A DNA stretch of 64,000 nt from Patescibacteria group bacterium. GTDB lineage: Bacteria > Patescibacteriota > Minisyncoccia > Phycocordibacterales > EsbW-18. A program made the position numbers and the translations under genes. The stretch is taken from the NCBI GenBank assembly GCA_038064475.1, contig JBBTTA010000002.1, positions 19,195 through 83,194 of the forward strand, in the 5' to 3' direction. Positions 1 through 63,673 of the stretch are shown one piece after another; the stretch's first letter is position 1, and each line of letters opens with the position of its first letter. A model generated the notes under the pieces. It was not told the origin of the DNA, made no database searches, and was given only the letters and a program-made list of their open reading frames with translations.

Positions 1-961
1 AATGCTTCAGCGCGAAGACGCGCACCATTACAGAGCGTACACACTTCATTGCTAAAAAATTCTTGTGTGCCCAAACCATTACATTCCTGACACGCACCGT
101 ACGGACTGTTGAAAGAAAAGAGACGTGGTTCGATTTCTGGATACGAATAACCGTCGTTGGGACATGAAAACTTTGACGACATCAGTGTGCCAATTTCATT
201 GCTCTTTTTCTTTTTGAATTCGTCGCGCGCTGTTTGCACGATACGCACAAGACCTGCTGCTTCATGCATTGCGCGTTCAAGTCCTTCGCGGAGTCGCTCC
301 ACCGCGCCATCACGTGATTCTTTAAAATCAATCAGAGGAATACGATCAACAAGCACATCGATATCGTGCACTTTGTTTTTCTCAAGCATGATTTGCTCGC
401 GAAGTTCGTGGCGCACGCCGTCAACAAGCACTTCTGAATATCCTTTGCTCAACAAATCGTAGAGTAATTGATAGTACTCACCTTTGCGACCACGAACGAC
501 AGGAGCAAACAACTCCAGTGTTGGTTGTATTGTTTGCGCTCGCTTCACCGCATCTTTGAGATCTCCTAGAGATCGCTTTGGCAGACCTTTCACTGCTTTG
601 TCGGCGTCCGTCAAAACAAAGTTCTGAATTTCTTCAGACGTGAGGCGTTTGATTGGCTCACCACACACGAGACAATGTGGAATGCCAATACGCGCGTACA
701 AAATACGCAGATAGTCTGAAATCTCGGTTATTGTTGCGACGGTCGAACGTGGATTGTTCGAACGTGATTTTTGATCGATAGAAATTGCCGGAGAAAGACC
801 GATGATTTCATCAACATCTGGTTTCGGCATCTGGCTGATGAATTGTCGCGCATACGCAGAAAGAGATTCAACATACCGGCGCTGTCCTTCGGCAAAGATA
901 GTATCGAACGCCAAAGAAGACTTCCCCGATCCAGAAAGTCCTGTAAATACCACCATTTTGT
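1..961 (-). CDS. uvrA: Excinuclease ABC subunit A, N-terminal ~320 aa only; C-terminus lies beyond the window start
   Basis: Minus-strand translation from 961 gives [33 protein letters not shown] (Walker A). Frame stays open to position 1 with zinc-finger-like [17 protein letters not shown] and [14 protein letters not shown]. It is absent from the ORF track because no stop falls in the window. Confidence 0.85.
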
Positions 962-2054: not shown

Positions 2055-2543
2055 CTACTGCTCCGTCCCCCGCAACCCTGAAACCTCGGGAAGAGGCATT
2101 ATGCTTTCAAGACCCTCGATCTTGCCCTCGAAACTCTTCAGCGCAAGTACATGCTCCACACGATGAAGCACGGCCACGGCTGCGGTGTGATCGCCGTCCG
2201 AGAGAAGCTCTCGTATCCAGCTCTTGAGACCCTGAAACCAGTCCATGCCACTGGGGGTCAGGAAGAGGTCTTCGTTCTCCTCGAGGCGAGCGAACATGGT
2301 CCGAATTGAAGTCCAAGTACACCACTCGTCGAGTCGATCGAGAAGCACCTCGATCTCGACACCGCACCTGTGAGCTTCCCGATTGGGAAGCTCACAGCAG
2401 CGTTCGATCTTGGTTTCGATCGCGTGAACACGTCTCAGTGCCGACGTACCATCCACATGGAGATCCCTCTCCATCTTCGTGATGAGACGCTTGAGCCCCT
2501 CGATTCGACTCTGAAACATTTCTTTTGGATCGAAGAGAATCAT
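2055..2543 (-). CDS. Hypothetical protein (162 aa), GC-rich
   Basis: Complete ORF. Strong RBS AAAGAGGGGGGGAG upstream on the minus strand. No recognisable motifs. Confidence 0.5.
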   Translation of the reverse strand: MILFDPKEMFQSRIEGLKRLITKMERDLHVDGTSALRRVHAIETKIERCCELPNREAHRCGVEIEVLLDRLDEWCTWTSIRTMFARLEENEDLFLTPSGMDWFQGLKSWIRELLSDGDHTAAVAVLHRVEHVLALKSFEGKIEGLESIMPLPEVSGLRGTEQ

Positions 2544-2590
2544 CTCCCCCCCTCTTTCGTTTGAACTGCAGGTCTATGTGATATGTCTAC

Positions 2591-2610
2591 ACGTACTCAC
2601 GTGAGTACGT
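2591..2610. promoter_or_regulatory. Perfect 20-bp palindrome ACGTACTCACGTGAGTACGT in the divergent promoter region
   Basis: Read directly in the sequence. It lies between the minus-strand gene start at 2543 and the tsaD start at 2687. This is typical operator geometry. Confidence 0.35.
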
Positions 2611-2686
2611 AAGGATCATCTGGGAGAAAATTATATCAGTTGTTTCGTACTTGTCAATATGGAGTGACAATGCAATACTACCTCGC

Positions 2687-3904
2687 ATGCGTATTTTGGC
2701 TATTGAAACTTCCTGCGACGAAACAGCCGTCTCTCTTCTTGAGTGCAGCGGTGGCTTCTCAAACCCCATATTTTCTGTCCTTGGCACAGGACTTTTCTCG
2801 CAAGCGCATCTTCACGAAAAATATGGCGGCGTCTTCCCTGCTCTTGCAAAGCGCGAGCATCAAAAAAACCTCGTGCCCCTTCTGAAGGTGGCACTCAAGG
2901 ACACTGCTCTTTTGGAGGCTAAGCCTCCAAGGCTTGGAGGCTTAGCCTCCAAGGATCTTGATTCCATCCTAGAGCAAGAGCCAGAGCTCAAAAGACAACT
3001 TGTTGAGTATTTTTCAGAAAACTCGAATATTCCAAATATTGATGCTGTTGCAGTAACACAAGGTCCGGGACTTGAACCAGCGCTTTGGGTTGGACTCAAC
3101 TTTGCAAAAACACTTTCGTTTGTGTGGCAAAAACCTTTGATTCCGGTGAACCACATGGAAGGACACGTCTTTTCCGTTCTAACGAACGGAAAAGAAATTT
3201 CAAATGACAAATCACAAATTTCAAATAAGGAATCTGTAACGATTGAATTTCCTGCACTCGCTCTTCTTGTGTCAGGCGGACACACCGAACTGCAGCTCGT
3301 ACGCGATTGGCTTTCATACGAACGTTTGGGCGAAACGCGCGACGATGCGATCGGCGAAGCCTTTGATAAAGTCGCGCGTCTTTTGGGCCTTCCCTATCCC
3401 GGTGGTCCAGAAATTTCTAAATTGGCCAGCATAGCGCGCGCAGAAAACTCAAACACATACACCATCACACTTCCTCGACCGATGATTAAATCTAACGATT
3501 ACGATTTTTCATACGCTGGACTTAAAACTGCAGTTCTCTACGCAATTAAAGAGCATGGCGACATGGATGACACATACAAAAAAGAAATGGCGCGTGCGTT
3601 TGAGGACGCTGCTATTGACGTTGTGTGTGCAAAATCAGAAAAAGCGCTCGCTGAATATCTTCCAAAAACATTTATCACTGGTGGTGGAGTTATTGGCAAC
3701 ACCTATTTGCGTGAACGACTTACGACACTTATTCAAACCAAGTTTCCAGAGACAAAGATTCTTTTCCCTACACGCGAACTCTCAACAGACAACGCTGTCA
3801 TGATTGGTATGGCTGGGTACCTTCGCTACGAAAAAACACCGCATACATACGGTGTCTACAATCAATCTCAAACACTTGCAGCGTCAGGAACACTTCGACT
3901 CTAG
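2687..3904 (+). CDS. tsaD: tRNA N6-adenosine threonylcarbamoyltransferase TsaD (Kae1/Gcp family) with an internal insertion
   Basis: MRILAIETSCDETAVSLL matches the TsaD N-terminus exactly. VTQGPGLEPALWVGLNFAKTLS and GGVIGNTYLRERL also match. The ORF-track start at 2651 probably over-extends; I placed the start at MRILAIE. Confidence 0.85.
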   Translation: MRILAIETSCDETAVSLLECSGGFSNPIFSVLGTGLFSQAHLHEKYGGVFPALAKREHQKNLVPLLKVALKDTALLEAKPPRLGGLASKDLDSILEQEPELKRQLVEYFSENSNIPNIDAVAVTQGPGLEPALWVGLNFAKTLSFVWQKPLIPVNHMEGHVFSVLTNGKEISNDKSQISNKESVTIEFPALALLVSGGHTELQLVRDWLSYERLGETRDDAIGEAFDKVARLLGLPYPGGPEISKLASIARAENSNTYTITLPRPMIKSNDYDFSYAGLKTAVLYAIKEHGDMDDTYKKEMARAFEDAAIDVVCAKSEKALAEYLPKTFITGGGVIGNTYLRERLTTLIQTKFPETKILFPTRELSTDNAVMIGMAGYLRYEKTPHTYGVYNQSQTLAASGTLRL

Positions 3905-4061: not shown

Positions 4062-5123
4062 CTAGATAACCAGCAAATCAGCTGAAAGCAACAGATAGTT
4101 GAAGTAGAAGAGCAAACAAATGATTGCGAGAAGTGCCGCACCATATGCCATGTTGCGTGAGTGTTGTCGGTGCACTTGGCGATACACCATAAGGAGCATC
4201 ACAAATGCAATCAAAAGTCCGATAACCATGTATCCCCATGCAACAGCCGCGCGTGGGCGTGACATCAACTCTTCCAATACAAGCGCTTCATTTGTTTTTT
4301 CTGTTGGCGCTTCAGCGGGTGCAGGTTCTTCATTTGTCTCTGCGTACGTATCTGTTTCATTTGTAATACCCAATGGAGCAATGGGAAGTGTTACAACAGG
4401 TTCTGGCTCAGGCATCACCTCAGCAACTTCTGGCACTACAGGCTCTGGTTCAACGACAGCAACCGTCTCACCGGCGATTTCTGCCGCACCTTCTTGTGGA
4501 ATAAATTCACTCTCAATCTGCACACTGTTCGATGCTTCTTCGGCAACAACTGCTGGCGTACCAAACAATTGCACGACGTACACCGTTTTCTTTCCTTTGT
4601 ATGTTCCTGAAACAGCGGCAATACCAACTTCGGTAAAGTTGCCATTCATGATGTTGGCACGATGTCCCGGAGAATCCATCCATGCACGATTCACGTCATG
4701 TGAATCTGAAAAGTTCACCGCGAGATTTTCTCCTGCGCGCACAAACTGATATCCAGCGCGATAAAACCAATACCATGGATCAAGTCCATCGGGGCTCGTG
4801 TGTGCAAAGTATTCATTCTTCGCCATATCTTCTGCCTTCATGCGTGCCGCTTCTTCAAGTACGGGATTTATTGAAAGTGTGCCAAGTCCTTCTGCTTCGC
4901 GATCGTCGTTGGCAAGATCAACAAGCACTGCAGGCACAACTGACGCGAGAAACTCGTTGTTCGTGCGCACCAAGACCGCTTGAAATACTGAAAAACCAAA
5001 CAAAAGTACGACAACAAGCGCGATTGCAAGCACACTTGCTTCACGCAACGCATGAGGTTTGTGTTCGTTCCCTTCATGCGGGATAAAATAATCTTTGAGA
5101 TGTTTTCGCATAGATGCAAACAT
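4062..5123 (-). CDS. Membrane-anchored CAP/SCP (PR-1-like, YkwD-like) domain protein
   Basis: N-terminal TM helix. Motifs HTSPDGLDPWYWFYRAGYQF...GENLA...WMDSPGHRANIM are typical of the CAP superfamily. Acidic Pro-rich linker and a C-terminal TM. Confidence 0.7.
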   Translation of the reverse strand: MFASMRKHLKDYFIPHEGNEHKPHALREASVLAIALVVVLLFGFSVFQAVLVRTNNEFLASVVPAVLVDLANDDREAEGLGTLSINPVLEEAARMKAEDMAKNEYFAHTSPDGLDPWYWFYRAGYQFVRAGENLAVNFSDSHDVNRAWMDSPGHRANIMNGNFTEVGIAAVSGTYKGKKTVYVVQLFGTPAVVAEEASNSVQIESEFIPQEGAAEIAGETVAVVEPEPVVPEVAEVMPEPEPVVTLPIAPLGITNETDTYAETNEEPAPAEAPTEKTNEALVLEELMSRPRAAVAWGYMVIGLLIAFVMLLMVYRQVHRQHSRNMAYGAALLAIICLLFYFNYLLLSADLLVI

Positions 5124-5133
5124 TACTCTAATG

Positions 5134-8370: not shown

Positions 8371-10620
8371 ATGGTTCCCGATAAGTTTCTAAAGCCCTAC
8401 AGCCATACAGATACAGAAAAAAGAATTTATTCCGCTTGGGAAGAAAGCGGCCTTTTCAACCCTGATGTATGTGTTGAAAAAGGTGTTGCCGCCCCAGACG
8501 CTCCTTCTTTCTCTATTGTCCTTCCCCCACCAAATGTGACGGGCACACTCCACACCGGACACGCTCTCGGCACAACTATTGAAGATATTGTTGTTCGCTA
8601 CCACCGCATGAAGGGCGACAAAACACTCTGGGTCCCTGGAACTGACCACGCCGCTATCGCCACACAAAGTAAAGTTGAAAAGATGCTTGAAAAAGAAGGT
8701 GTCAAAAAACGCGACCTTGGTCGTGAGGCGTTTTTGGAACGCGTTAATCAGTTTGCACAAGAATCTCATGACACTATCGTTGGACAAATTCGTCGTATGG
8801 GATCATCAATCGATTGGTCACGCGAAGCATTCACACTCGACGAAGTGCGTACAAAAGCAGTACGTACTGCTTTTGTGCGCATGTATGAAGATGGTTTGAT
8901 TTATCGCGGTGATCGTATTGTGAACTGGGATTCAAAACTTCAAACAACAGTTTCAGATGATGAAGTTGATTGGAAAGAAGAAAAAACGCCGTTTTATTAT
9001 TTGAAGTACGGTCCGTTCACGATTGCGACAGCGCGTCCTGAAACAAAATTCGGTGACAAGTACGTTGTCATGCATCCAGACGATGCTCGATACGCGAAGT
9101 ACAAACACGGCGACACACTTGCACTTGAGTGGATTAACGGTCCGATTACAGCAACCGTTATCAAAGACTCTGTGATTGATATGGAGTTCGGCACGGGTGT
9201 CATGACGATTACACCATGGCATGACACCGTTGACTTTGATATAGCTCTACGACACAAACTTGATAAAGAACAAATCATCGACACTTTTGGCAAACTACTT
9301 CCCATCGCAGGAGATTTTGCCGGCATGCAAATTAAAAAAGCGCGTGAAGCAATTGTGGCAAAGCTTACGGAAAAAGGTCTTGTTGAAAAAATAGATGAAA
9401 ACTATATTCACCGCATCGCCATCAACTCGCGTGGTGAAGGAGCAATCGAACCACAAATTTTGCGTCAGTGGTTCATTGACGTAAACAAACCGTTCATACT
9501 CAAACACTCAAACATCCCTTCAATCAAAAGCGGAAGCGAAACAACACTGAAGTCGATTATGCGCGCAGGCGTTGAACACAAAGCAATCAACGTACTTCCC
9601 GACCGATTTGAGAAAGTCTACTACCATTGGATTGATAACCTGCGCGACTGGTGTATCAGTCGCCAAATCTGGTACGGGCACCGTATCCCTGTGTGGTACC
9701 GAAATCAGAATCAAGAATCAGGAGTCATGAATCAGGAAGAAGTCTACGTTGGTACAGAAGCTCCAGAAGGCTCCGATTGGGTGCAAGACGAAGATACGCT
9801 TGATACATGGTTCTCATCAGGTCTTTGGACATTCTCAACATTGGGCTGGCCCTACTCCGCCGAGACGGCTACGAAGGGCAAACCTGGGCCCGAAAATGAT
9901 TTTGCGAACTTCCATCCTACGAACCTTCTTGAGACTGGCTACGATATTCTTTTCTTCTGGGTTGCACGCATGATTTTGATGACAGGCTACTTGTTGGGTG
10001 AAGTCCCCTTCAACACTGTGTATCTTCACGGTTTGGTGCGTGATGAAAAAGGTCAGAAGATGTCGAAGTCCATTGGCAACAGTGTTGATCCACTTGATGT
10101 CATTGATGCGCACGGCGCGGACGCGCTTCGCATGGCGCTCGTTGTCGCTGTTGGTCCGGGTAATGACAGTAATCTCTCTGACGATAAAATTAAAGCGTAC
10201 AAAAAGTTTGCGAATAAAATCTGGAACATCACGCGTTTTGTTCTTGAAAAAACAAATGAAGTCCCTGAACGCCCATCACTCACTGATGCCGACATCACAC
10301 GCATCAATGAATTGAATGCACTTATTCAAGAGATTACAGAGGATTTGGAAAAGTATCGCCTCTACCTCGCTTCAGAAAAGTTGTATCATTATGTGTGGCA
10401 CACACTTGCCGATGTGATTATCGAAGAACGCAAAGTGATTCTTGAGGGTAGTGACGAGACGGCAAAAGTGTCTGCACAATGGACATTGCGCACAATTCTT
10501 CGCACATCACTCGCTTTGCTTCACCCATTCATGCCATTCATCACTGAGGACATTTGGTCTGATGTGAAAGGATCAGACGACCCAATGCTCATGATTATGT
10601 CGTGGCCTCGTCAGATTTAA
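8371..10620 (+). CDS. valS: Valine--tRNA ligase (compact 749-aa form)
   Basis: HIGH-region PPPNVTGTLHTGHALG. KMSKS motif present. The ValS-type editing/anticodon regions run throughout. Confidence 0.85.
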   Translation: MVPDKFLKPYSHTDTEKRIYSAWEESGLFNPDVCVEKGVAAPDAPSFSIVLPPPNVTGTLHTGHALGTTIEDIVVRYHRMKGDKTLWVPGTDHAAIATQSKVEKMLEKEGVKKRDLGREAFLERVNQFAQESHDTIVGQIRRMGSSIDWSREAFTLDEVRTKAVRTAFVRMYEDGLIYRGDRIVNWDSKLQTTVSDDEVDWKEEKTPFYYLKYGPFTIATARPETKFGDKYVVMHPDDARYAKYKHGDTLALEWINGPITATVIKDSVIDMEFGTGVMTITPWHDTVDFDIALRHKLDKEQIIDTFGKLLPIAGDFAGMQIKKAREAIVAKLTEKGLVEKIDENYIHRIAINSRGEGAIEPQILRQWFIDVNKPFILKHSNIPSIKSGSETTLKSIMRAGVEHKAINVLPDRFEKVYYHWIDNLRDWCISRQIWYGHRIPVWYRNQNQESGVMNQEEVYVGTEAPEGSDWVQDEDTLDTWFSSGLWTFSTLGWPYSAETATKGKPGPENDFANFHPTNLLETGYDILFFWVARMILMTGYLLGEVPFNTVYLHGLVRDEKGQKMSKSIGNSVDPLDVIDAHGADALRMALVVAVGPGNDSNLSDDKIKAYKKFANKIWNITRFVLEKTNEVPERPSLTDADITRINELNALIQEITEDLEKYRLYLASEKLYHYVWHTLADVIIEERKVILEGSDETAKVSAQWTLRTILRTSLALLHPFMPFITEDIWSDVKGSDDPMLMIMSWPRQI

Positions 10621-12540: not shown

Positions 12541-12660
12541 ATGAGGATGGCACGCAGCATTAGGGCGTAGTCATCGAGAGAAGAGAAAAAGGAAGCTCGC
12601 TTACTTTTTCTCGCCTCCGAGATGATGGGAGCCCGTTATGCTATGTGATCCGAACGCCGC
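12541..12660 (-). repeat. ~110-nt tRNA-operon leader repeat, copy A (immediately 5' of tRNA-Phe)
   Basis: About 85% identical to 13341-13460, sharing CGTAGTCATCGAGAGAAGAGAAAAAGGAAGCTCG..TTACTTTTTCT. It contains a CGAG..CTCG hairpin, and a CUCG/CGAG hairpin (A) that in copy B is CUUG/CGAG with a G-U. Confidence 0.4.
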
Positions 12661-13047: not shown

Positions 13048-13080
13048 AGCCCTACGGGCGAGCCACGGTTTTTGTATTAA

Positions 13081-13195
13081 ACGGTAGAGTGAGCTTGTCC
13101 TGTTGAAACGACTTGCGAGCGCGACGGCGCGAGTACGAGGAAAAATGAAGCTTCATTTTATCCGTACGTTTCGACAGGACCATGCGAATGTCTTG
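13081..13195 (-). ncRNA. Unclassified structured element, copy 1 (abuts the tRNA-Arg 3' end)
   Basis: Outer stem GTCCTGTTGAAACG/CGTTTCGACAGGAC. Conserved core ACTTGCGAGCGCGACGGCGCGAGTACGAGGAAAAAT. Inner palindrome AAAATGAAGCTTCATTTT. Conserved ATTTTATCCGTAC. Its homologues at 18302-18391 and 62166-62296 have different but still base-paired stems. Confidence 0.4.
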
Positions 13196-13340: not shown

Positions 13341-13460
13341 AAATAAGGATGCCACGCACGATTGGAGGACGTAGTCATCGAGAGAAGAGAAAAAGGAAGC
13401 TCGTTTACTTTTTCTTGCGCTCGAGGTGATGGGAGTCCGAACTCGTATGTGGTCCGCGTG
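13341..13460 (-). repeat. ~110-nt tRNA-operon leader repeat, copy B (immediately 5' of tRNA-Gly/Arg)
   Basis: Homologous to 12541-12660. Followed at ~13470-13495 by the palindrome GTATAG-tact-CTATAC. Confidence 0.4.
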
Positions 13461-13496
13461 CCGCGAACGTATAGTACTCTATACCGCTTGCGCACA

Positions 13497-15823: not shown

Positions 15824-16027
15824 AGTATGAACATCCTATCAGACGAACGCCTCTTAAGCACGATATTTTTCTTTTCTTTCTTATGACCTATGTCCTCTTT
15901 TCCGTTCTCTGTTCTTTGTTATCTGTTCATCTTCTTGCAAATCATGATTCCTAATTCTTAATTCCTGATTCTTGATTCCTGATTCTTGATTCTGTTGTCT
16001 GTTCTCTTATGACTCATGACTGCTCTT

Positions 16028-17710: not shown

Positions 17711-17802
17711 ACCGTGATGTCTTCTATTGTAGCAAAAAACACAAAACTCCGCGGTAGCGGAGTTTCATGATAGGTCTTGTATCGATAAGCCGAATTCTGT
17801 AT

Positions 17803-17835
17803 CCAGCTCCAGTTTTTTCAAACTGGGGCTGGACG
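17803..17835. repeat. Hairpin module CCAGCTCCAGTTT-tttca-AAACTGGGGCTGG, copy 1 (P18 position of rnpB)
   Basis: 13-bp stem with one G-U on the plus strand (C-A on the minus-strand RNA). Four copies in the window. Confidence 0.6.
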
Positions 17836-18066
17836 ACAGGCATCTATCTGGGATGAAAATTACTTTTCACCTCAAGCGGCACTTCTAACGTAAATCAAAG
17901 ACTAACGTTAGACTCGGCCTTGCACGTAGATAAGGATTTTGCCGTTTCACCTCTCATGTCACCATGGGAGTTCACCTCACCGAAGCGAGGGCCAAACTTC
18001 TTTCGTTGTTTGGCGTCACTGTTCGCACCTCTATGCTTGCGCACGACGGGTGTTACCCGCTACCGT

Positions 18067-18102
18067 CCTCCAGCTCCAGTTTTTTCAAACTGGGGCTGGA
18101 CG
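18067..18102. repeat. Hairpin module copy 2 (between P4 and P7 of rnpB)
   Basis: Stem identical to copy 1 and extended by GTC/GAC. Confidence 0.6.
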
Positions 18103-18119
18103 TGTTCGGACTTTCCTCA

Positions 18120-18148
18120 CCCAGCTCCAGTTAAAAACTGGGGCTGGG
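18120..18148. repeat. Hairpin module copy 3 (P3 position of rnpB)
   Basis: CCCAGCTCCAGTT-aaaa-AACTGGGGCTGGG. Confidence 0.6.
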
Positions 18149-18195
18149 CGCGCCTGTCTAATACAAGGTGAATATACTATACCCTATTTTTCGAC

Positions 18196-18300
18196 TTTTT
18201 GCAACCCTCTTTTTCTTGTATTCGTATTTAACGACCTAACGAATTTTCTTTTGTATTGAACGCTGGAACGAGGTTTCCTTTGCATTTAACGGCCCAACGA
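18196..18300 (-). promoter_or_regulatory. Three direct repeats TGYATTnAACGnnnnAACGA upstream of the rnpB promoter
   Basis: tgtattcgtatttAACGACCTAACGA / tgtattgAACGCTGGAACGA / tgcatttAACGGCCCAACGA, spaced ~25-30 bp apart. Read directly. Confidence 0.3.
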
Positions 18301-18301
18301 G

Positions 18302-18391
18302 TTTATAGATTTGGAATGACTTGCGAGTGCGACGGCACGAGCACGAGGAAAAATCCAGTAGGATTTTATCCGTGCATTCCAAATCTATAAA
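18302..18391 (-). ncRNA. Unclassified structured element, copy 2 (immediately 3' of the nrdB stop)
   Basis: Outer stem TTTATAGATTTGGAATG/CATTCCAAATCTATAAA (17 bp, perfect). Core ACTTGCGAGTGCGACGGCACGAGCACGAGGAAAAAT. Inner palindrome AAAATCC-agta-GGATTTT. ATTTTATCCGTGC. There are compensatory changes relative to copy 1. Confidence 0.4.
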
Positions 18392-18400
18392 GGAGTGCTT

Positions 18401-19408
18401 TTACCATTCAAGTTGGCCCCCTGTCTTGTATTCACTCACACGTGTTTCAAAAAAGTTCTTTTCCTTGCGTGTATCCATGATTTCAGACATCCAAGGGAAT
18501 GGGTTTTTCTTTCCGTAGACGGGTGCTAGGCCAATACGTTCCAATCGGCGATCTGCAATGTATTCGAGATATTCTTCGATGCTTCCTGGTGTAAGTCCCA
18601 TAATTCCCTTTGGCAATGCTTCGTGTGCGTATTTTTGTTCGAGTATGACTGCCTCTTTTATTTTCTCTGTCAAAAGCCCCTTAAACTCTGGCGTCCAGAT
18701 TTCTGGATTTTCCTGAACAATAGTGTTGATGAGGTCTGAACCGAATGCGAGGTGCACTGTTTCATCACGCAAGATAAATTGGAACTGCTCCCCTACTCCC
18801 ACCATTTTGTTTTGACGCAACAAAGACAACATCATTGCAAAACCGGCGTAGAAGAAAATGCCTTCCATGATGACGTAGTAGCCAACAAGATCGTGCACGA
18901 ACTGTTGAATATTTGCGACGCCTTCTGTTTTAAAATCAGGATCAAAGACTGACTTCGTAAAGTTGATAACAAAGTCATCCTTCTCTTTGATTGATGGGAT
19001 CGTGAGATACATGTTGTAAATCTCATCAGGATCAAGTCCCAACGTGTCACACGCATAGATGAACGTATCGGTGTGCACTGCTTCTTCATATGCCTGACGC
19101 AAAAGATACTGTCGACATTCAGGGTTCGTGATGTGTCGATAAATCGCCAACACAATGTTGTTTGCGGTCAACGACTCTGCGGTCGAGAAGAATCCAAGGT
19201 TGTAGAGAATCATGTGACGCTCATCATCTGTCAGCGCACCTTGTCCCTGTTTCTTCCACAACTCCACATCAAGCTGCATCGAGACCTCTTCAGGCACCCA
19301 GTTGTTCGCGACACCGTTTTTGTAATGTTGACGTGCCCACGGATACTTCAACGGCAATATTTTATTTGGATCAACGTTTGATGCGTTGAGAATTTGTTTT
19401 TGACTCAT
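18401..19408 (-). CDS. nrdB: Class I ribonucleotide reductase beta subunit (NrdB)
   Basis: Di-iron carboxylate motifs EAVHTDTF, FYAGF and RDETVHL. Confidence 0.85.
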   Translation of the reverse strand: MSQKQILNASNVDPNKILPLKYPWARQHYKNGVANNWVPEEVSMQLDVELWKKQGQGALTDDERHMILYNLGFFSTAESLTANNIVLAIYRHITNPECRQYLLRQAYEEAVHTDTFIYACDTLGLDPDEIYNMYLTIPSIKEKDDFVINFTKSVFDPDFKTEGVANIQQFVHDLVGYYVIMEGIFFYAGFAMMLSLLRQNKMVGVGEQFQFILRDETVHLAFGSDLINTIVQENPEIWTPEFKGLLTEKIKEAVILEQKYAHEALPKGIMGLTPGSIEEYLEYIADRRLERIGLAPVYGKKNPFPWMSEIMDTRKEKNFFETRVSEYKTGGQLEW

Positions 19409-50658: not shown

Positions 50659-50716
50659 TATATCTTGATTCTTGACCTGCCCGTCCGGCAGGCGGGTTCA
50701 AGATTCTTGACTCTAC

Positions 50717-51814
50717 CTAGAGTTCGTCAACTGCGTCGTCTGCAAGCTCTTCTGCTTCTTCGGCAGATTCAACTGCTTCATCCCAGTCTTCGTCATCAAA
50801 TGCAGTTTCAGCGTCTGCCAATAGGTCTTCGGCGTCGTCGAGAAGTGCCTGTGCATCGTCGATGTCGTCTTGGTCGGCGTCATCGTCCTCTGCTTCATCA
50901 ATTGCGTCTTGTGCATCGTCAATTGCTTCCTGTGCGTCATCAATGGCGTCCTCTGCGTCGTTTTCATCGTTGTCTTCGTCACCACCATTGTCTTCAAGCT
51001 CATCCTGCGCATCCATTGCGCTCTCGCGAGCATCGCGCGCAAGGTTCTTTGCATCCATCAAATCGCCATCTGCGAAGGCGTCCTGTGCGTCTTGGAATAG
51101 CCCCTCCGCTTCATCGAGAAGCACCTGTGCGTCGTCGATGTCGTCTTGGTCGGCGTCATCGTCCTCTGCTTCATCAATTGCGTCTTGTGCCTCTTCGATC
51201 TCACGATCTGCTTGCTGAAGTGCTACTTGGACGTCTTGTCGAAGAAGTCCTGAGTTGCCTCCTGCCTGAAGGATCTGGTCTTGGAGCAATGCAATCAATT
51301 GCTCAAGAAGCTCTTGAATACGTGCGCGAAGAACGTCTTCGGCTTTTCCTTTTCCACTGTTGTCTTCATCCTCATCGTCATCATCCTCATCTTCGTCGTC
51401 ATCATCCTCATCTTCGTCGTCGTCATCCTCGTCTTCATCATCGTCATCGTCATCACTGTCGTCCTCTAACACGTCCTCTGCTTCGTCAGCAAAGTCCTCT
51501 GCATCCTCCGCAGATTCAACTGCTTCGTCCCAGTCTTCGTCGTCGAATGCTGTTTCAGCGTCAGCGAGTGCGTCTTCGGCGTCTTCGACAAGCGCCTGTG
51601 CGTCATCGACGTCACTTTGGTCTATGTCTTCGTCGCTATCTGCTTCGTCGATTGCATCCTGTGCATCATCAATCGCTTCTTCAGCGTCATCGATGGCCTC
51701 TTGTGCATCTTCTTCCGTTGCAGCTGCATGTACACCCGCTGGGACAAGAAGTCCGAGCCCAAGAGCAAAGAGCACGAATGCTCCACCTATAAATGCTAGA
51801 AATCGTTTATCCAT
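50717..51814 (-). CDS. Secreted highly acidic low-complexity repeat protein (365 aa)
   Basis: Signal peptide MDKRFLAFIGGAFVLFALGLGLLVPAGVHA. Repeated AQEAIDDAQDAIDEAEDDDADQDDIDDAQ units and a poly(D/E) block. The plus-strand ORF 50647..51792 is its mirror artefact. Confidence 0.5.
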   Translation of the reverse strand: MDKRFLAFIGGAFVLFALGLGLLVPAGVHAAATEEDAQEAIDDAEEAIDDAQDAIDEADSDEDIDQSDVDDAQALVEDAEDALADAETAFDDEDWDEAVESAEDAEDFADEAEDVLEDDSDDDDDDEDEDDDDEDEDDDDEDEDDDDEDEDNSGKGKAEDVLRARIQELLEQLIALLQDQILQAGGNSGLLRQDVQVALQQADREIEEAQDAIDEAEDDDADQDDIDDAQVLLDEAEGLFQDAQDAFADGDLMDAKNLARDARESAMDAQDELEDNGGDEDNDENDAEDAIDDAQEAIDDAQDAIDEAEDDDADQDDIDDAQALLDDAEDLLADAETAFDDEDWDEAVESAEEAEELADDAVDEL

Positions 51815-53339: not shown

Positions 53340-55301
53340 ATGATGCCTCCATCTATGCAGGCTTCCTCGACAGATAGTACACAGCCAACACGGCTTGAAG
53401 GCATCATCAGCACAACACAAAAAGGCATTGGATTCCTCAAACATCCCGACCTTACTGAAGACGTTCGTATTGAAGCTGGTTTTTTGAACGCAGCGCTTAA
53501 CCGCGATTTGGTTGAAGTACAACTCCTTCCCAAAGTTCCTGACATGCAACAGACAGGAGAAGTGGTGCGAATTATCAAGCGCGCCCGCACGAAGTTTGTT
53601 GGTGTTATTGAACACGAAAACGGTTTTGTGTTTGCGATGCCAGACGACCGTCGTTTCTACACAACGATTCTCCTTGATGAAAAAGCAAAGGAACTCGTGG
53701 ATGGCGACAAGGTGTATGTTGAAATGCACGAATGGACAGATCCTAAAAAACAGCCCCTCGGTACTGTGCTTGAAGTACTTGGACATAAGGGTGTGCACGA
53801 AGTTGAAATTCGCTCAATCATTCTTGAAAACGGTATTGATGATTCCTTCCCTGCCGCTGTTGAAAAAGAAGCAGAACAAATTCATCACGAACATCAGGCA
53901 CACACACCAGAAGACCTCGAGGGGCGTGAAGACGTGCGTACTGTTGCGACATTTACGATTGACCCTGCTGACGCAAAAGATTTCGACGACGCATTGTCTG
54001 TACAATTTTTAGAAAACGGAAACATGGAGGTTGGCATTCACATTGCTGACGTGACACATTACGTGAAGCCCGGAAGTGCTCTTGATACAGAAGGCAAGGC
54101 GCGTGCGTACTCGGTGTACCTTGTGGATCGCACCATTCCGATGTTGCCTGAAGTGCTTTCAAATGATTTGTGTAGTTTGAAACCTGACGTTGATCGTCTC
54201 ACCTTCTCTGTATGGGCTGTCATCGACAAAGATTCAAAGGTTGTAGGAACACGCTTCGGGAAAAGCATCATTCACTCACAGAAACGATTTACGTACGAAG
54301 AAGCACAAGAAATCTTGAATAAAGGTGAGGGTACTTTTTACAAAGAGCTCGTTGCACTTAATACACACGCAAAGAGTATGCGCGATCGCCGCATGAAAGC
54401 TGGTTCGGTTGACTTTGAACAACGCGAAGTAAAATTTGAACTTGCTGACGACGGAACACCATTGTCCGTCTACACAAAAGAACGTCTCGATACACACAAA
54501 CTTATTGAGGAGTACATGTTGCTCGCGAACTTTTCTGTTGCGGAACACATCATGGCAAACTTCGGCAAAAACAAACAGCACGTCTTTGTCTACCGCACAC
54601 ACGACCATCCTGACCGAGAAAAATTGAAAATCGTTGCTGAACTCGTAAAGGCAACCGGACACGAACTCCCCCTCTCTCCAAAAGGTGACGTCACTGGTCA
54701 AGCACTCAACAAACTCTTTGCAGAAATCACTGGCTTGCCTGAAGAAAACCTGATTAAAACAGCGGCGCTCCGTTCGATGGCAAAAGCGGCATACACCGTG
54801 CCCAACATTGGACACTTTGGTCTGGCAGCTCCTTCATACTCTCAATTCACGTCTCCTATTCGTCGCTACGCCGATATGATTGCGCACCGATTGCTCTTCC
54901 AAGCACTGACTCAAAACACCTTGCCGAACGACCAATGGGCGTTGTATAACAAAATTTTGAGTGATCTTTCTCAGCGCGAAGTAAACACGGTTGGCGCAGA
55001 ACGCGACTCAATCAAATACAAACAAGTTGAATACATGTCGTCACGTATTGGTCAGGTGTTCGACGGTGTTATCTCCGGCGTGTCTGAATGGGGTGTTTTT
55101 GTTGAAGAAAAAGAAACCCGCTGTGAAGGGTTGGTATCAGTACGCTCAATGAATGATGATTTCTATACATTTGACGCAAAGAAATTCCGTCTCGTTGGTC
55201 GTCGTAGCAATAAAACACTCTCTCTTGGTGACGTCATCCGCGTTAAAGTTGAAAAAACTGATTTGGATAGAAAGACCATCGACTACTCCCTGGTGCAGTA
55301 A
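53340..55301 (+). CDS. rnr: Ribonuclease R (RNB-family 3'-5' exoribonuclease with C-terminal S1 domain)
   Basis: Cold-shock/OB N-terminus. RNB catalytic region HFGLAAPSYSQFTSPIRRYADMIAHR. S1 domain at the C-terminus. Confidence 0.85.
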   Translation: MMPPSMQASSTDSTQPTRLEGIISTTQKGIGFLKHPDLTEDVRIEAGFLNAALNRDLVEVQLLPKVPDMQQTGEVVRIIKRARTKFVGVIEHENGFVFAMPDDRRFYTTILLDEKAKELVDGDKVYVEMHEWTDPKKQPLGTVLEVLGHKGVHEVEIRSIILENGIDDSFPAAVEKEAEQIHHEHQAHTPEDLEGREDVRTVATFTIDPADAKDFDDALSVQFLENGNMEVGIHIADVTHYVKPGSALDTEGKARAYSVYLVDRTIPMLPEVLSNDLCSLKPDVDRLTFSVWAVIDKDSKVVGTRFGKSIIHSQKRFTYEEAQEILNKGEGTFYKELVALNTHAKSMRDRRMKAGSVDFEQREVKFELADDGTPLSVYTKERLDTHKLIEEYMLLANFSVAEHIMANFGKNKQHVFVYRTHDHPDREKLKIVAELVKATGHELPLSPKGDVTGQALNKLFAEITGLPEENLIKTAALRSMAKAAYTVPNIGHFGLAAPSYSQFTSPIRRYADMIAHRLLFQALTQNTLPNDQWALYNKILSDLSQREVNTVGAERDSIKYKQVEYMSSRIGQVFDGVISGVSEWGVFVEEKETRCEGLVSVRSMNDDFYTFDAKKFRLVGRRSNKTLSLGDVIRVKVEKTDLDRKTIDYSLVQ

Positions 55302-55326: not shown

Positions 55327-55370
55327 CCCGTCCAGCCCAAGTTCAAAAACTGGAGCTGGACGGGGCTTTT
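55327..55370 (+). terminator. rnr terminator, the fourth copy of the rnpB hairpin module, + CTTTTT
   Basis: CCCGTCCAGCCCAAGTT-caaaa-ACTGGAGCTGGACGGGG followed by a T-tract. Confidence 0.6.
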
Positions 55371-55852
55371 TAGGTCGTCGAAGAATGGAGGTCTGCCTCT
55401 GTTACCTTGCGAAGACGGTAAAACTTTACGAATACAATGAAGGTGCCCCACTCTTCTGAAAGACGAACCCTCGTCACCGAGTAACGGAGAGGGTGTCCAA
55501 GAAACGGGGGTTGCTTCTCCTCCTTGCGAGGAAGAACGAAGAGTGTGTCGTCAACATGTGCTTGGAGCTGACTCACACCACCTTTCGTATACCATCCTTC
55601 AACAAGATTGAGCTCGAGGATTTGTCCTATGAAGTACCTTTGCGGAGCACGCATACACTCCTTCCCGTTGATGACCGTGCGGATATCATCAACGTTCACG
55701 CGTGTCAGAGTTCCGTTCTGTCTGATGATGCGAGGACACTCGGCAAGCAGGTTGCCGAGCGTATCGCGCTCGACTCCCGTCCTCAATGCAACAATTTGAG
55801 CTTCACGGGAAAGCACAACTTCCTTTCCTCCAATGACAACGGATCTAATCAT
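55370..55852 (-). CDS. Hypothetical protein (160 aa), GC-rich islet
   Basis: Complete ORF. GC ~52%. No family recognised. Confidence 0.4.
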   Translation of the reverse strand: MIRSVVIGGKEVVLSREAQIVALRTGVERDTLGNLLAECPRIIRQNGTLTRVNVDDIRTVINGKECMRAPQRYFIGQILELNLVEGWYTKGGVSQLQAHVDDTLFVLPRKEEKQPPFLGHPLRYSVTRVRLSEEWGTFIVFVKFYRLRKVTEADLHSSTT

Positions 55853-62124: not shown

Positions 62125-62165
62125 AGGTTTGTACTATAGCACGGGTCTTAAAACTGCGCAAAACA

Positions 62166-62296
62166 CGTTCGCATAGTCCTCTTGAAACGCACGGATAAAA
62201 GTAAGCTTACTTTTTCCTCGTGCTCGCGCCGCCTGCCTACCGCAGGCAGGTCGCGCTCGCAAGTCGTTTCAATAGGGATAAGCTCACTCTACCGTT
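62166..62296 (+). ncRNA. Unclassified structured element, copy 3 (opposite orientation, in the rpmF upstream region)
   Basis: CGTTCGCATAGTCCTCTTGAAACG-CACGGATAAAA-GTAAGCTTAC-TTTTTCCTCGTGCTCGCGCC-[CCTGCC..GGCAGG]-TCGCGCTCGCAAGTC-GTTTCAATAGGG-ATAAGCTCACTCTACCGTT. It shares its outer flanks with copy 1. The inner palindrome has a third sequence variant. The small hairpin is replaced by a longer one. Confidence 0.4.
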
Positions 62297-62341
62297 AGAT
62301 ACTCCAGTGAGAAGCCCCCGATAGTTACAAAACCCTGAGTG

Positions 62342-63561: not shown

Positions 63562-63673
63562 ACCACAATTGTATAGCAAGAATCATGAAGCTAGAATCAT
63601 GAATCAGGGCACGTAAAATCTTGATTCATGATTCATAATTCCTGATTCTTAACCCGACATGTACAATGGGCGC

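Follow-up and report, generated by a model that had tools for sequence, protein, structure and literature searches.

The stretch examined here, called the window below, comprises 64,000 nucleotides of contig JBBTTA010000002.1 from a Patescibacteria group bacterium (GTDB order Phycocordibacterales; positions 19,195 to 83,194 of the forward strand), and carries rnpB, the gene for the RNA component of RNase P, on its minus strand. Three peripheral helices of this RNA are formed by one and the same short hairpin, referred to below as the module, and a fourth copy stands after rnr, an RNase R/II-family gene on the plus strand. The comparisons described below argue firmly that the module is a cassette transplanted as a block, which appears to have replaced the three rnpB helices and to supply the stem of a putative terminator after rnr. 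The positions of the features are given in Table 1.

Table 1. Features of the window and of rnpB genes from other loci (L numbers), with the helices formed by the module
Locus	Feature	Position	Strand	Remarks
Window	rnpB, bacterial type A RNase P RNA, 396 nt	17772-18167	-	Rfam RF00010
Window	Module copy 1, whole of P3	18119-18149	-	GC-CCAGCCCCAGUU-UUU-AACUGGAGCUGG-GU; C•A at stem position 6; arms 18147-18136/18132-18121
Window	Module copy 2, P5-P7 hairpin (P5.1-like)	18068-18101	-	GU-CCAGCCCCAGUU-UGAAAA-AACUGGAGCUGG-AG; GAAA tetraloop; arms 18099-18088/18081-18070
Window	Module copy 3, P19	17801-17834	-	Rfam and alignment of relatives; arms 17832-17821/17814-17803
Window	Module copy 4, terminator-like	55327-55371	+	Includes U-tract; hairpin 55327-55364; arms 55332-55343, 55348-55359
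Window	rnr, RNase R/II-family gene	53340-55301	+	Pfam RNB, CSD2, OB_RNB, S1
Window	True P18 of rnpB, GAGGUGAAAAGUAAUUUUCAUCC, GUAA loop	17851-17873	-	No module; Rfam alignment, model positions 283-302
Window	Promoter-like TTGCAA-17-TATAGT just 5' of rnpB	18176-18204	-	Consensus match only
Window	Intrinsic terminator of rnpB, 13-bp stem and U-run	17730-17769	-	Ordinary hairpin, no module
L108	rnpB	2583-2926		Relative
L111	rnpB	2564-2925		Relative
L110	rnpB	2458-2909		Relative
L007	rnpB, module in P12			
L060, L148	rnpB, module in P3 and P19			
L071	rnpB, module in P3 and P15-17 region			Variant arms CCCUC/GAGGG in P3
L035	rnpB, module in P5.1-like helix and a second helix			
L104	rnpB, module in P15-17			
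L120	rnpB, module in P19			
L146	rnpB, module in P18			
L193	rnpB, module in P15-17; P9 and P19 as variant stems	330-826		91.9 bits
L054	rnpB, three module stems	4750-5131		69.2 bits

The window rnpB matches the RF00010 model from end to end (model positions 1-367 of 367; 102.3 bits, E 3.6e-30), with a score just above the curated gathering score of 100; the score is low because three of the helices are non-consensus. The gene holds the conserved regions CR-I (GAGGAAAGUCCG) and CR-V (ACAGAAUUCGGCUUA; P4 strand ACAGAAnnCGGCUUA), and both P4 strands are unchanged in the alignment with six syntenic relatives. It is the sole rnpB seen in the 64-kb window and is predicted by RF00010 to be of type A.

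All three rnpB hairpins share the arms CCAGCCCCAGUU and AACUGGAGCUGG, and the predicted folding energy of each is near -23 kcal/mol (z = -5.8 to -7.3; -23.8 kcal/mol for copy 1 and -22.9 kcal/mol for copy 2). Every one of them has a single C•A mismatch in the RNA sense, which reads U•G on the opposite strand, and copies 2 and 3 are identical across 34 nt (17802-17835 = 18069-18102). Copy 2 is flanked by the 5' strand of P5 (ACACG) and by GGACGGUAG, and lies where P5.1 sits in type B RNase P RNAs, while copy 3 is bounded by the 3' strand of P2 (CUGUCG) and the 3' strand of P4 (UACAGAAUUCGGCUUA). The fourth copy starts 26 nt past the stop codon of rnr (55299-55301). In addition to the shared C•A it contains an A•G (5' arm CCAGCCCAAGUU), and its stem is lengthened by CCCGU/ACGGG to 17 pairs with two mismatches (-29.9 kcal/mol, z = -6.5), followed by GC-UUUUU. 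As a stable G+C-rich hairpin with a U-tract at the 3' end of a gene, copy 4 has the predicted make-up of an intrinsic (Rho-independent) terminator, although a strict consensus terminator scan did not flag it because of its mismatches. Shuffled versions of the window are expected to contain the full hairpin pattern 0.00 times, and no fifth copy was found in the 64 kb at up to two mismatches per arm.

Most of what had been proposed for this locus in an earlier sequence-only reading was recovered: the identity of rnpB, now backed by the RF00010 match; the three copies of one hairpin within it, the arms of which could be mapped at three sites; the fourth copy near 55327, where the hairpin and GC-TTTTT follow an open reading frame (ORF) with an RNB domain; and the strand asymmetry of the mismatch. 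Two details had to be amended. Among the helix labels, P3 was right and the P5-region label holds in the form of a P5.1-like hairpin, but the third copy, taken for P18, is P19, and the true P18 is a separate helix. Similarly, the 'same single' non-Watson-Crick position ascribed to all copies is a property of the three rnpB copies and not of copy 4, which has C•A plus A•G.

The neighbouring MurJ protein places the window in a Patescibacteria bacterium near Candidatus Campbellbacteria, and the MurJ of the nearest relative is 81% identical. Seven relatives (MurJ 81-55% identical) keep rnpB directly upstream of MurJ-LepA, and five of the seven (MurJ 81-68% identical) have ribonucleotide reductase genes on the other side of rnpB, as the window does. 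The module is absent from all seven syntenic relatives (52 kb of loci). In the relatives, too, all three sites are occupied by a helix, the sequences being unrelated to the module and to one another: P3 is AUCUGCCUCUGGCAGAU, the P5.1-like helix UCCCGCUUCUGCGGGA and P19 UUUCCUUCGGGGAA in L108, and the latter two are UCCGCGUUCUUCGGAACACGGA and UCUCGCUUUGGCGAGA in L109. The catalytic core of rnpB is invariant in the alignment with six syntenic relatives. This comparison shows the three rnpB copies to be apparent recent replacements of existing helices and not lineage-conserved sequences; since unrelated helices occupy the same sites in the relatives, the overwriting would have taken place after the split from the relative with 81% MurJ identity. 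The orientation of rnpB beside MurJ also varies: both genes are on the same strand in the window, L109 and L114, and on opposite strands in L108, L110, L111, L112 and L113. It is a single RNA gene that has been turned around in place more than once among close relatives.

For a wider view, one genome per species (185,579 species, 596 Gb) was scanned for CCAGCYCMAGTT-N2-14-AACTKGRGCTGG. The scan returned 107 stretches in 75 assemblies, where about 0.5-1 would be expected by chance, and up to 5-7 exact copies were present in some assemblies. Nearly all of the 75 are members of the Candidate Phyla Radiation (CPR, Patescibacteria) and belong to many classes, with lineages including Paceibacterota, Saccharibacteria, Doudna-, Falkow-, Kaiser-, Kerfeld-, Komeili-, Buchanan-, Terry-, Jackson-, Yanofsky-, Nealson- and Peribacteria. 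Of the few matching metagenome-assembled genomes labelled otherwise, several have CPR-like contigs, e.g., L071, with a module-bearing rnpB. At least 118 further stretches were found in a scan of metagenome contigs. The apparent distribution is wide but patchy, because only few of all CPR species match and the close relatives of the window are without the module.

Alignment of the copies defined the unit as R-Y-CCAGCYCCAGUU-(U...A)-AACUGGRGCUGG-R-Y (R, purine; Y, pyrimidine), a cassette of about 32-36 nt, the stem of which has 12 core pairs and two R-Y/R-Y flanking pairs, 14 in total. Among 176 unique copies, the base at -1 is C or U in 168 and that at +1 is G or A in 165, while -2 is a purine in 140 and +2 a pyrimidine in 133; past +/-2, pairing of the flanks is at chance level. 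The R-Y ends and the lack of flank pairing beyond them thus show that the unit is a discrete, sharply bounded hairpin. The apex is free: mostly 3-6 nt long, often U-GNRA-A or C-GCAA-G, it can be as short as 2 nt, and some apices consist of 41-282 nt of unrelated sequence. Variant stems contain paired double changes (CCACUU/AAGUGG, CCAAUU/AAUUGG, UCAGC/GCUGA, CCCGC/GCGGG, CCCUC/GAGGG). At stem position 6, 139 of 231 copies are mismatched (C•A / U•G), 72 have a perfect C-G and 20 a U-A.

Based on Rfam and motif mapping of the host contexts, 34 of 181 unique contexts (19%) were recognised as structured RNA, and a T-run follows the hairpin, terminator-like, in 36 of the 181. The rnpB helices that host the module are, overall, P3, P5.1-like, P9, P12, P15-17, P18 and P19. 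More than one stem of the module or of a module-like type occurs in seven independent rnpB genes, those of the window, L193 and L054 having three each and those of L060, L071, L035 and L120 two each; the scores of L193 and L054 fall under the RF00010 gathering score. The three stems of L193 represent three 'dialects' (AAUU, AGUU and ACUU) which differ by compensatory changes at stem position 10 and coexist in one rnpB.

Ribosomal RNAs and introns host the module as well. In five lineages, helix h6 of 16S rRNA (between GCAAGUCGAACG and AGUGGCGAACGGG) is the module, the 16S 5' regions of these lineages being only 69-79% identical (88.7% for one pair); other CPR 16S genes among these loci lack it and show only a tiny hairpin at h6. 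Copies were also found in 23S rRNA and in the spacer between 23S and 5S. Group I introns, at least nine different ones, have the module as P8, directly 5' of the J8/7 sequence GAAGAUAUAGUCC, and further group I intron helices host it too. A reading of GAAGAUAUAGUCC as a variant P4 of RNase P RNA was rejected, since it is J8/7 of group I introns and those copies are therefore at P8. Likewise, L037 was dismissed as an rnpB with a U•G copy, no RNase P RNA being found there by Rfam. Two modules or a non-P8 module occur in rRNA group I introns of L089 (689-717 and 732-760) and L055 (247-501), and the 23S gene of L055 contains three group I introns.

The module is, moreover, one of several alternative apices of a CPR repeat, GAGATTGC...GCAATGAC, which in RNA letters reads GAGAUUGC-uucgucgc-(variable apex)-gcuccuc-GCAAUGAC. 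In its DNA form, GAGATTGC-ttcgtcgc-(variable apical hairpin)-gctcctc-GCAATGAC, this host repeat reaches a very high abundance in certain Falkowbacteria and Parcubacteria genomes (nine copies in 8 kb of L106; also L075, L047, L044 and L027), and it is found in-frame in ORFs, as ...SLRGASEAKRNERRGNL...LLRPAEAGLAMT... in a helicase of L027. A different arrangement was seen in L081 (6106-6215), L140 (2450-2565), L150 and L197, where units of 34 nt (CCAGCCCCAGTTTCGCAGTAGGAACAGGGTTTAC) are repeated three times in tandem, each unit holds one module arm, and the array closes with a complete module hairpin.

Protein-coding genes also contain the module. A DegT-type aminotransferase (L065) has, relative to PDB 3bn1, a 14-residue insertion precisely at the module, and in-frame modules are present in a UvrD-like helicase and in a PolA linker. 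Two adjacent type IV prepilin-like genes of L149 (41-190 and 553-702) carry the module in their leader peptides, immediately ahead of the G|FTLIE cleavage motif (MKKGFT-QPQFLKTGAG-FTLIE in the first, ...RKTGAG-FTLIE in the second), and in the first of these genes TTTAC stands on both sides of it. The inserted peptide of L149 would be removed along with the leader.

Taken together, these contexts show what appears to be insertion at the DNA level, including in-frame insertion in ORFs, which is not explicable by an RNA role. We regard it as rather probable that DNA-level duplication and transplantation spread the hairpin as a discrete cassette, both inside single CPR genomes and from one to another. 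The sequence-only reading had anticipated propagation as a unit, either a mobile hairpin or a protein-binding module, and co-option into a ribozyme, and the unrelated helices of the relatives, the copies across the CPR, the sharp ends and the in-frame insertions all agree with this. It had also named the finding that would speak against it, namely, ordinary lineage-conserved P3/P18 sequences without copies elsewhere; the opposite was found both in the relatives and in the genome scan. Beyond what that reading envisaged, the unit is superphylum-wide and not confined to one genome, and it is strongly concentrated in structured RNAs.

As to how the cassette could be tolerated in rnpB, the three helices are solvent-exposed and are not known to have a sequence-specific role in type A RNase P, so a very stable stem of similar length could substitute for them. 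They would need only stable stems of about the right length, and the cassette (about -23 kcal/mol, often with a GNRA-type loop) would stand in for them with the catalytic core untouched; the rnpB copies would then be functionally neutral or stabilising. The same stem, placed after rnr and followed by a U-tract, would serve as an intrinsic terminator. Copying itself might proceed, as a guess, by ectopic template switching or short-patch conversion at hairpins via microhomology, or alternatively by a putative hairpin-recognising enzyme. Flanking direct repeats of at least 5 nt are more frequent than expected (16 observed vs. 2.7 expected) and variable in length, which appears to fit microhomology joining better than a fixed-stagger transposase.

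A number of observations weigh against DNA-level copying as the whole account. No transposase or mobilising gene was found near the copies, either by clustering of 738 ORFs within 2 kb or in the 8-15 kb around each copy; the only recurrent neighbour family is an intron-encoded LAGLIDADG endonuclease, which belongs to the host introns. Most copies lack a target-site duplication, as direct repeats flank only about 10% of them, and viral contigs gave zero matches, which speaks against carriage by phages. Loops vary even inside one genome with the stem alone conserved, which is unusual for a copy-paste element. Structured RNAs make up an estimated <1% of a genome, and yet 19% of the copies lie there and several rnpB genes have two or three; this concentration is not obviously explained by random insertion plus survivorship. 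The module in h6 is kept across 16S 5' regions as divergent as stated above, a pattern that could mean long-term conservation and not recent spread. Finally, in structured RNAs (unique contexts) the RNA-sense forms at stem position 6 are C•A in 23, U-A in 6, C-G in 5 and U•G in 0, with two U•G cases outside that census (P18 of L146 and the P9 variant of L193), while the T-run (terminator-like) copies have mostly perfect C-G stems.

Several candidate explanations for the form of the element were tried and rejected. An autonomous element with the arms as terminal inverted repeats does not agree with the interiors of 41-282 nt, which are unrelated, AT-rich and without a transposase ORF. The recurring interiors of about 76 nt are not tRNA-like in sequence and hence do not represent an embedded tRNA. 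A duplicated copy in L072 flanks no recognisable transposase.

Although not phylogenetically independent, the counts suggest that the form taken by the RNA is under selection in stable RNAs. In the chief rival explanation to DNA-level copying, the module is an RNA-level handle: its stem, with an A opposite a C, binds a putative trans-acting protein or docking RNA common to RNase P RNA, 16S and 23S rRNA and group I introns, and selection for binding drives the accumulation in stable RNAs, DNA copying being delivery only. We hold this to be possible but tentative. Besides the prevalence of C•A in structured RNAs and of perfect stems in terminators, it would account for the strong structured-RNA concentration, the multiple copies per rnpB in independent lineages and the conservation of the h6 module across very divergent 16S. 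Conservation of the stem beside an apex that ranges freely from 2 to about 300 nt also accords with it, as do the compensatory stem variants (the AAUU, AGUU and ACUU dialects among them) and the absence of orientation bias at mRNA 3' ends (14 vs. 11).

The orientation of the copies in the window points the same way. An orientation set by replication was rejected: rnpB (minus strand) and rnr (plus strand) both have C•A in the RNA sense despite the same GC-skew sign near 18 kb and 55 kb (the skew is briefly positive at about 24-36 kb), so orientation in the window follows transcription and not replication. Transcription of rnr is head-on to the replication direction inferred from GC skew. At other loci, module orientation agrees with the majority gene direction in only 20 of 31 cases (hand tally). 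Selection for a GNRA loop was likewise discarded as the source of the orientation, the bias being merely modest (33 vs. 20).

Against an RNA handle stands, in the first place, its rarity: an exact match is present in only 75 of the 185,579 species genomes, a small part of the expected thousands of CPR species, and the close relatives are without it. Given this patchy occurrence, any factor would be accessory. Furthermore, the modules in ORFs and in other repeats have no obvious role as RNA handles, clustering of the neighbouring genes yielded no candidate protein, and the counts suffer from the phylogenetic dependence already mentioned. A more specific form, for which the odds seem slightly longer still, is that the module is the cognate handle of a putative horizontally mobile CPR factor, likely a protein reading the 14-bp stem and the unpaired A opposite the C. 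If true, such a mobile-factor handle would be a bacterial counterpart of the archaeal/eukaryotic K-turn/L7Ae arrangement, and factor-bearing genomes would use ectopic copy-paste to rebuild the outer helices of their stable RNAs from it.

That the module is a processing signal, cut in its stem by a double-strand-specific RNase so that the hairpin or its interior is removed and the host RNAs are fragmented, appears unlikely. The long unrelated interiors (41-282 nt) in P3 and P9 of rnpB and in the 23S-5S spacer do resemble intervening sequences, and all of the positions are break-tolerant peripheral helices; however, most copies have an apex of only 3-6 nt and thus nothing to excise, and the ORF copies are in-frame without stops, as if translated and not removed. 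Still less can be said for a duplex DNA site, i.e., an uptake sequence or a parS-like palindrome that falls in RNA genes by chance, which we consider very improbable. The palindrome is conserved in sequence across distant lineages, and its inverted pairs acting as terminators recall the DNA uptake sequences (DUS) of Neisseria and the uptake signal sequences (USS) of Haemophilus. On the other hand, a spacer of 2 to >14 nt is unfit for a dimer on duplex DNA, the concentration in RNA genes and the compensatory variants point to a folded single strand, and the few copies per genome are far under uptake-sequence density: DUS/USS occur about once per kb, whereas the window has four modules in its 64 kb, of which three share a single gene of 400 nt. 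The notion that these are ordinary lineage-conserved helices, or products of convergence or chance, is hardly credible, for although P3 and the other two helices are present in the relatives, they share no sequence with the module there, two of the window copies are identical over 34 nt, and the scans found the hairpin far above the expectation in shuffled sequence and in 596 Gb, almost only in the CPR.

Other repeats were noticed in the window. An element of about 100 nt (...TTGCGAGCGCGACGGCGCGAGTACGAGGAAAAATGAAGCTTCATTTTATCCGT...) lies 5' of rnpB (18279-18378), at 13071-13170 and, inverted, at 62158-62302; its copies are 74-96% identical, and a tRNA cluster (13.2 kb) is near the 13-kb copy. 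Two tRNA genes are preceded by another repeat (12562-12660 and 13366-13464, 83% identical). Both repeats could be promoter or leader cassettes that RNA genes have in common. Tandem heptanucleotides (GATTCTT/GATTCCT/GATTCAT) occur between genes at 15939-16001, 9698-9738 and 63578-63650 in both orientations, and a long run of 21-nt-periodic repeats (TCCTCTGCTTCATCAATTGCGTC...) at 50715-51712 would give, in a minus-strand reading, a highly acidic D/E/A-rich repeat protein.

Among the known systems, the closest in behaviour to the DNA-level copying proposed here are the Rickettsia palindromic elements (RPEs), small palindromes that, like the module, occupy non-coding DNA, RNA genes and, in-frame, ORFs, but have no sequence relationship to it. 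RPEs are about 100-150 bp long and present in hundreds of copies in one genus, and no transposase is known for them; in contrast, the module is about 32 nt long and occurs in few copies per genome in many CPR classes. In R. felis, 85 of 728 RPEs are in ORFs and 3 in RNA genes (PMC1166351), so that the share in structured RNAs is 0.4% for RPEs and about 19% for the module. Unlike RPEs, the module precisely replaces helices and does not only insert.

Repetitive extragenic palindromic sequences (REPs) and bacterial interspersed mosaic elements (BIMEs) are imperfect hairpins of about 35 nt with a strand-asymmetric stem irregularity, often located at gene 3' ends as terminators or stabilisers, and the module resembles them in being a short imperfect hairpin with strand asymmetry and terminator use. 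REPs are extragenic and species-specific, have hundreds of copies and a 5' GTAG, and are linked to REP-associated tyrosine transposases (RAYT, Y1 HUH). The module differs from them by its copies inside RNA genes and ORFs and by no more than about 5-7 exact copies per assembly; neither GTAG nor RAYT was found, the flanks being only R-Y/R-Y and no recurrent transposase-like neighbour being present in the 8-15 kb around the copies. Correia elements (NEMIS, Neisseria miniature insertion sequences) and other miniature inverted-repeat transposable elements (MITEs) are similarly interspersed and co-transcribed, have inverted-repeat ends and can provide a terminator or a processing site. In MITEs the interior is conserved, target duplications are of fixed length (TA for Correia) and the element exceeds 100 bp, whereas the interior of the module is unrelated between copies and direct repeats are variable in length and flank about 10% of them.

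Parallels also exist among structured RNAs. Short tandemly repeated repetitive (STRR) sequences, reportedly described by Vioque in 1997 from P12 of the RNase P RNA of heterocystous cyanobacteria, are likewise genome-wide short repeats within a peripheral helix of rnpB with the function kept; unlike the module, they are tandem heptanucleotides restricted to one helix and one clade. The 11-nt GAAA tetraloop receptor, which Costa and Michel are said to have found in 1995 to be reused in group I/II introns and RNase P, is one short motif in unrelated self-folding RNAs, and P8 is a common receptor helix. That case represents convergence on a defined tertiary contact, whereas the module copies share 24-28 nt and are also present in ORFs and terminators. 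Intervening sequences of 23S and 16S rRNA are stem-loops of sporadic occurrence which take the place of peripheral helices in rRNA (in some genera, 16S h6) and are apparently horizontally transferred. In contrast to the module, they are about 100-200 nt long, are excised by RNase III, and are not common to RNase P RNA, introns, terminators and ORFs.

The module was not found described in the literature on its arm sequences, on CPR RNase P RNA, on Patescibacteria palindromes or hairpins, or on repeats in RNase P RNA, and the matches to the arm sequences were primer coincidences only. Diverged CPR RNase P RNAs were treated with lowered thresholds and manual refolding by Lui et al. 2021 (PMC8172020), who mention no shared hairpin. 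Overall, the module resembles invasive palindromes, and it is unusual in its superphylum conservation, precise helix replacement, preference for structured RNAs and maintained C•A.

For annotation, the module lowers covariance-model scores, to below the Rfam threshold in several module-bearing CPR rnpB genes, and may partly explain CPR RNase P RNAs that are hard to annotate. A near-identical 16S V1 region (h6) in lineages about 70% identical in the 16S 5' region can mislead V1 classification and chimera checks, and the in-frame copies add peptides of the 'QPQF...TGAG' type to proteins. More broadly, one sequence can repeatedly overwrite outer helices in RNase P RNA, in rRNAs and in group I introns across a superphylum. 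This implies either a hairpin-aimed copy-paste mechanism or a trans-acting factor common to these RNAs, each of which would be new, and with the unit, its boundaries and its variants defined, both ideas are testable.

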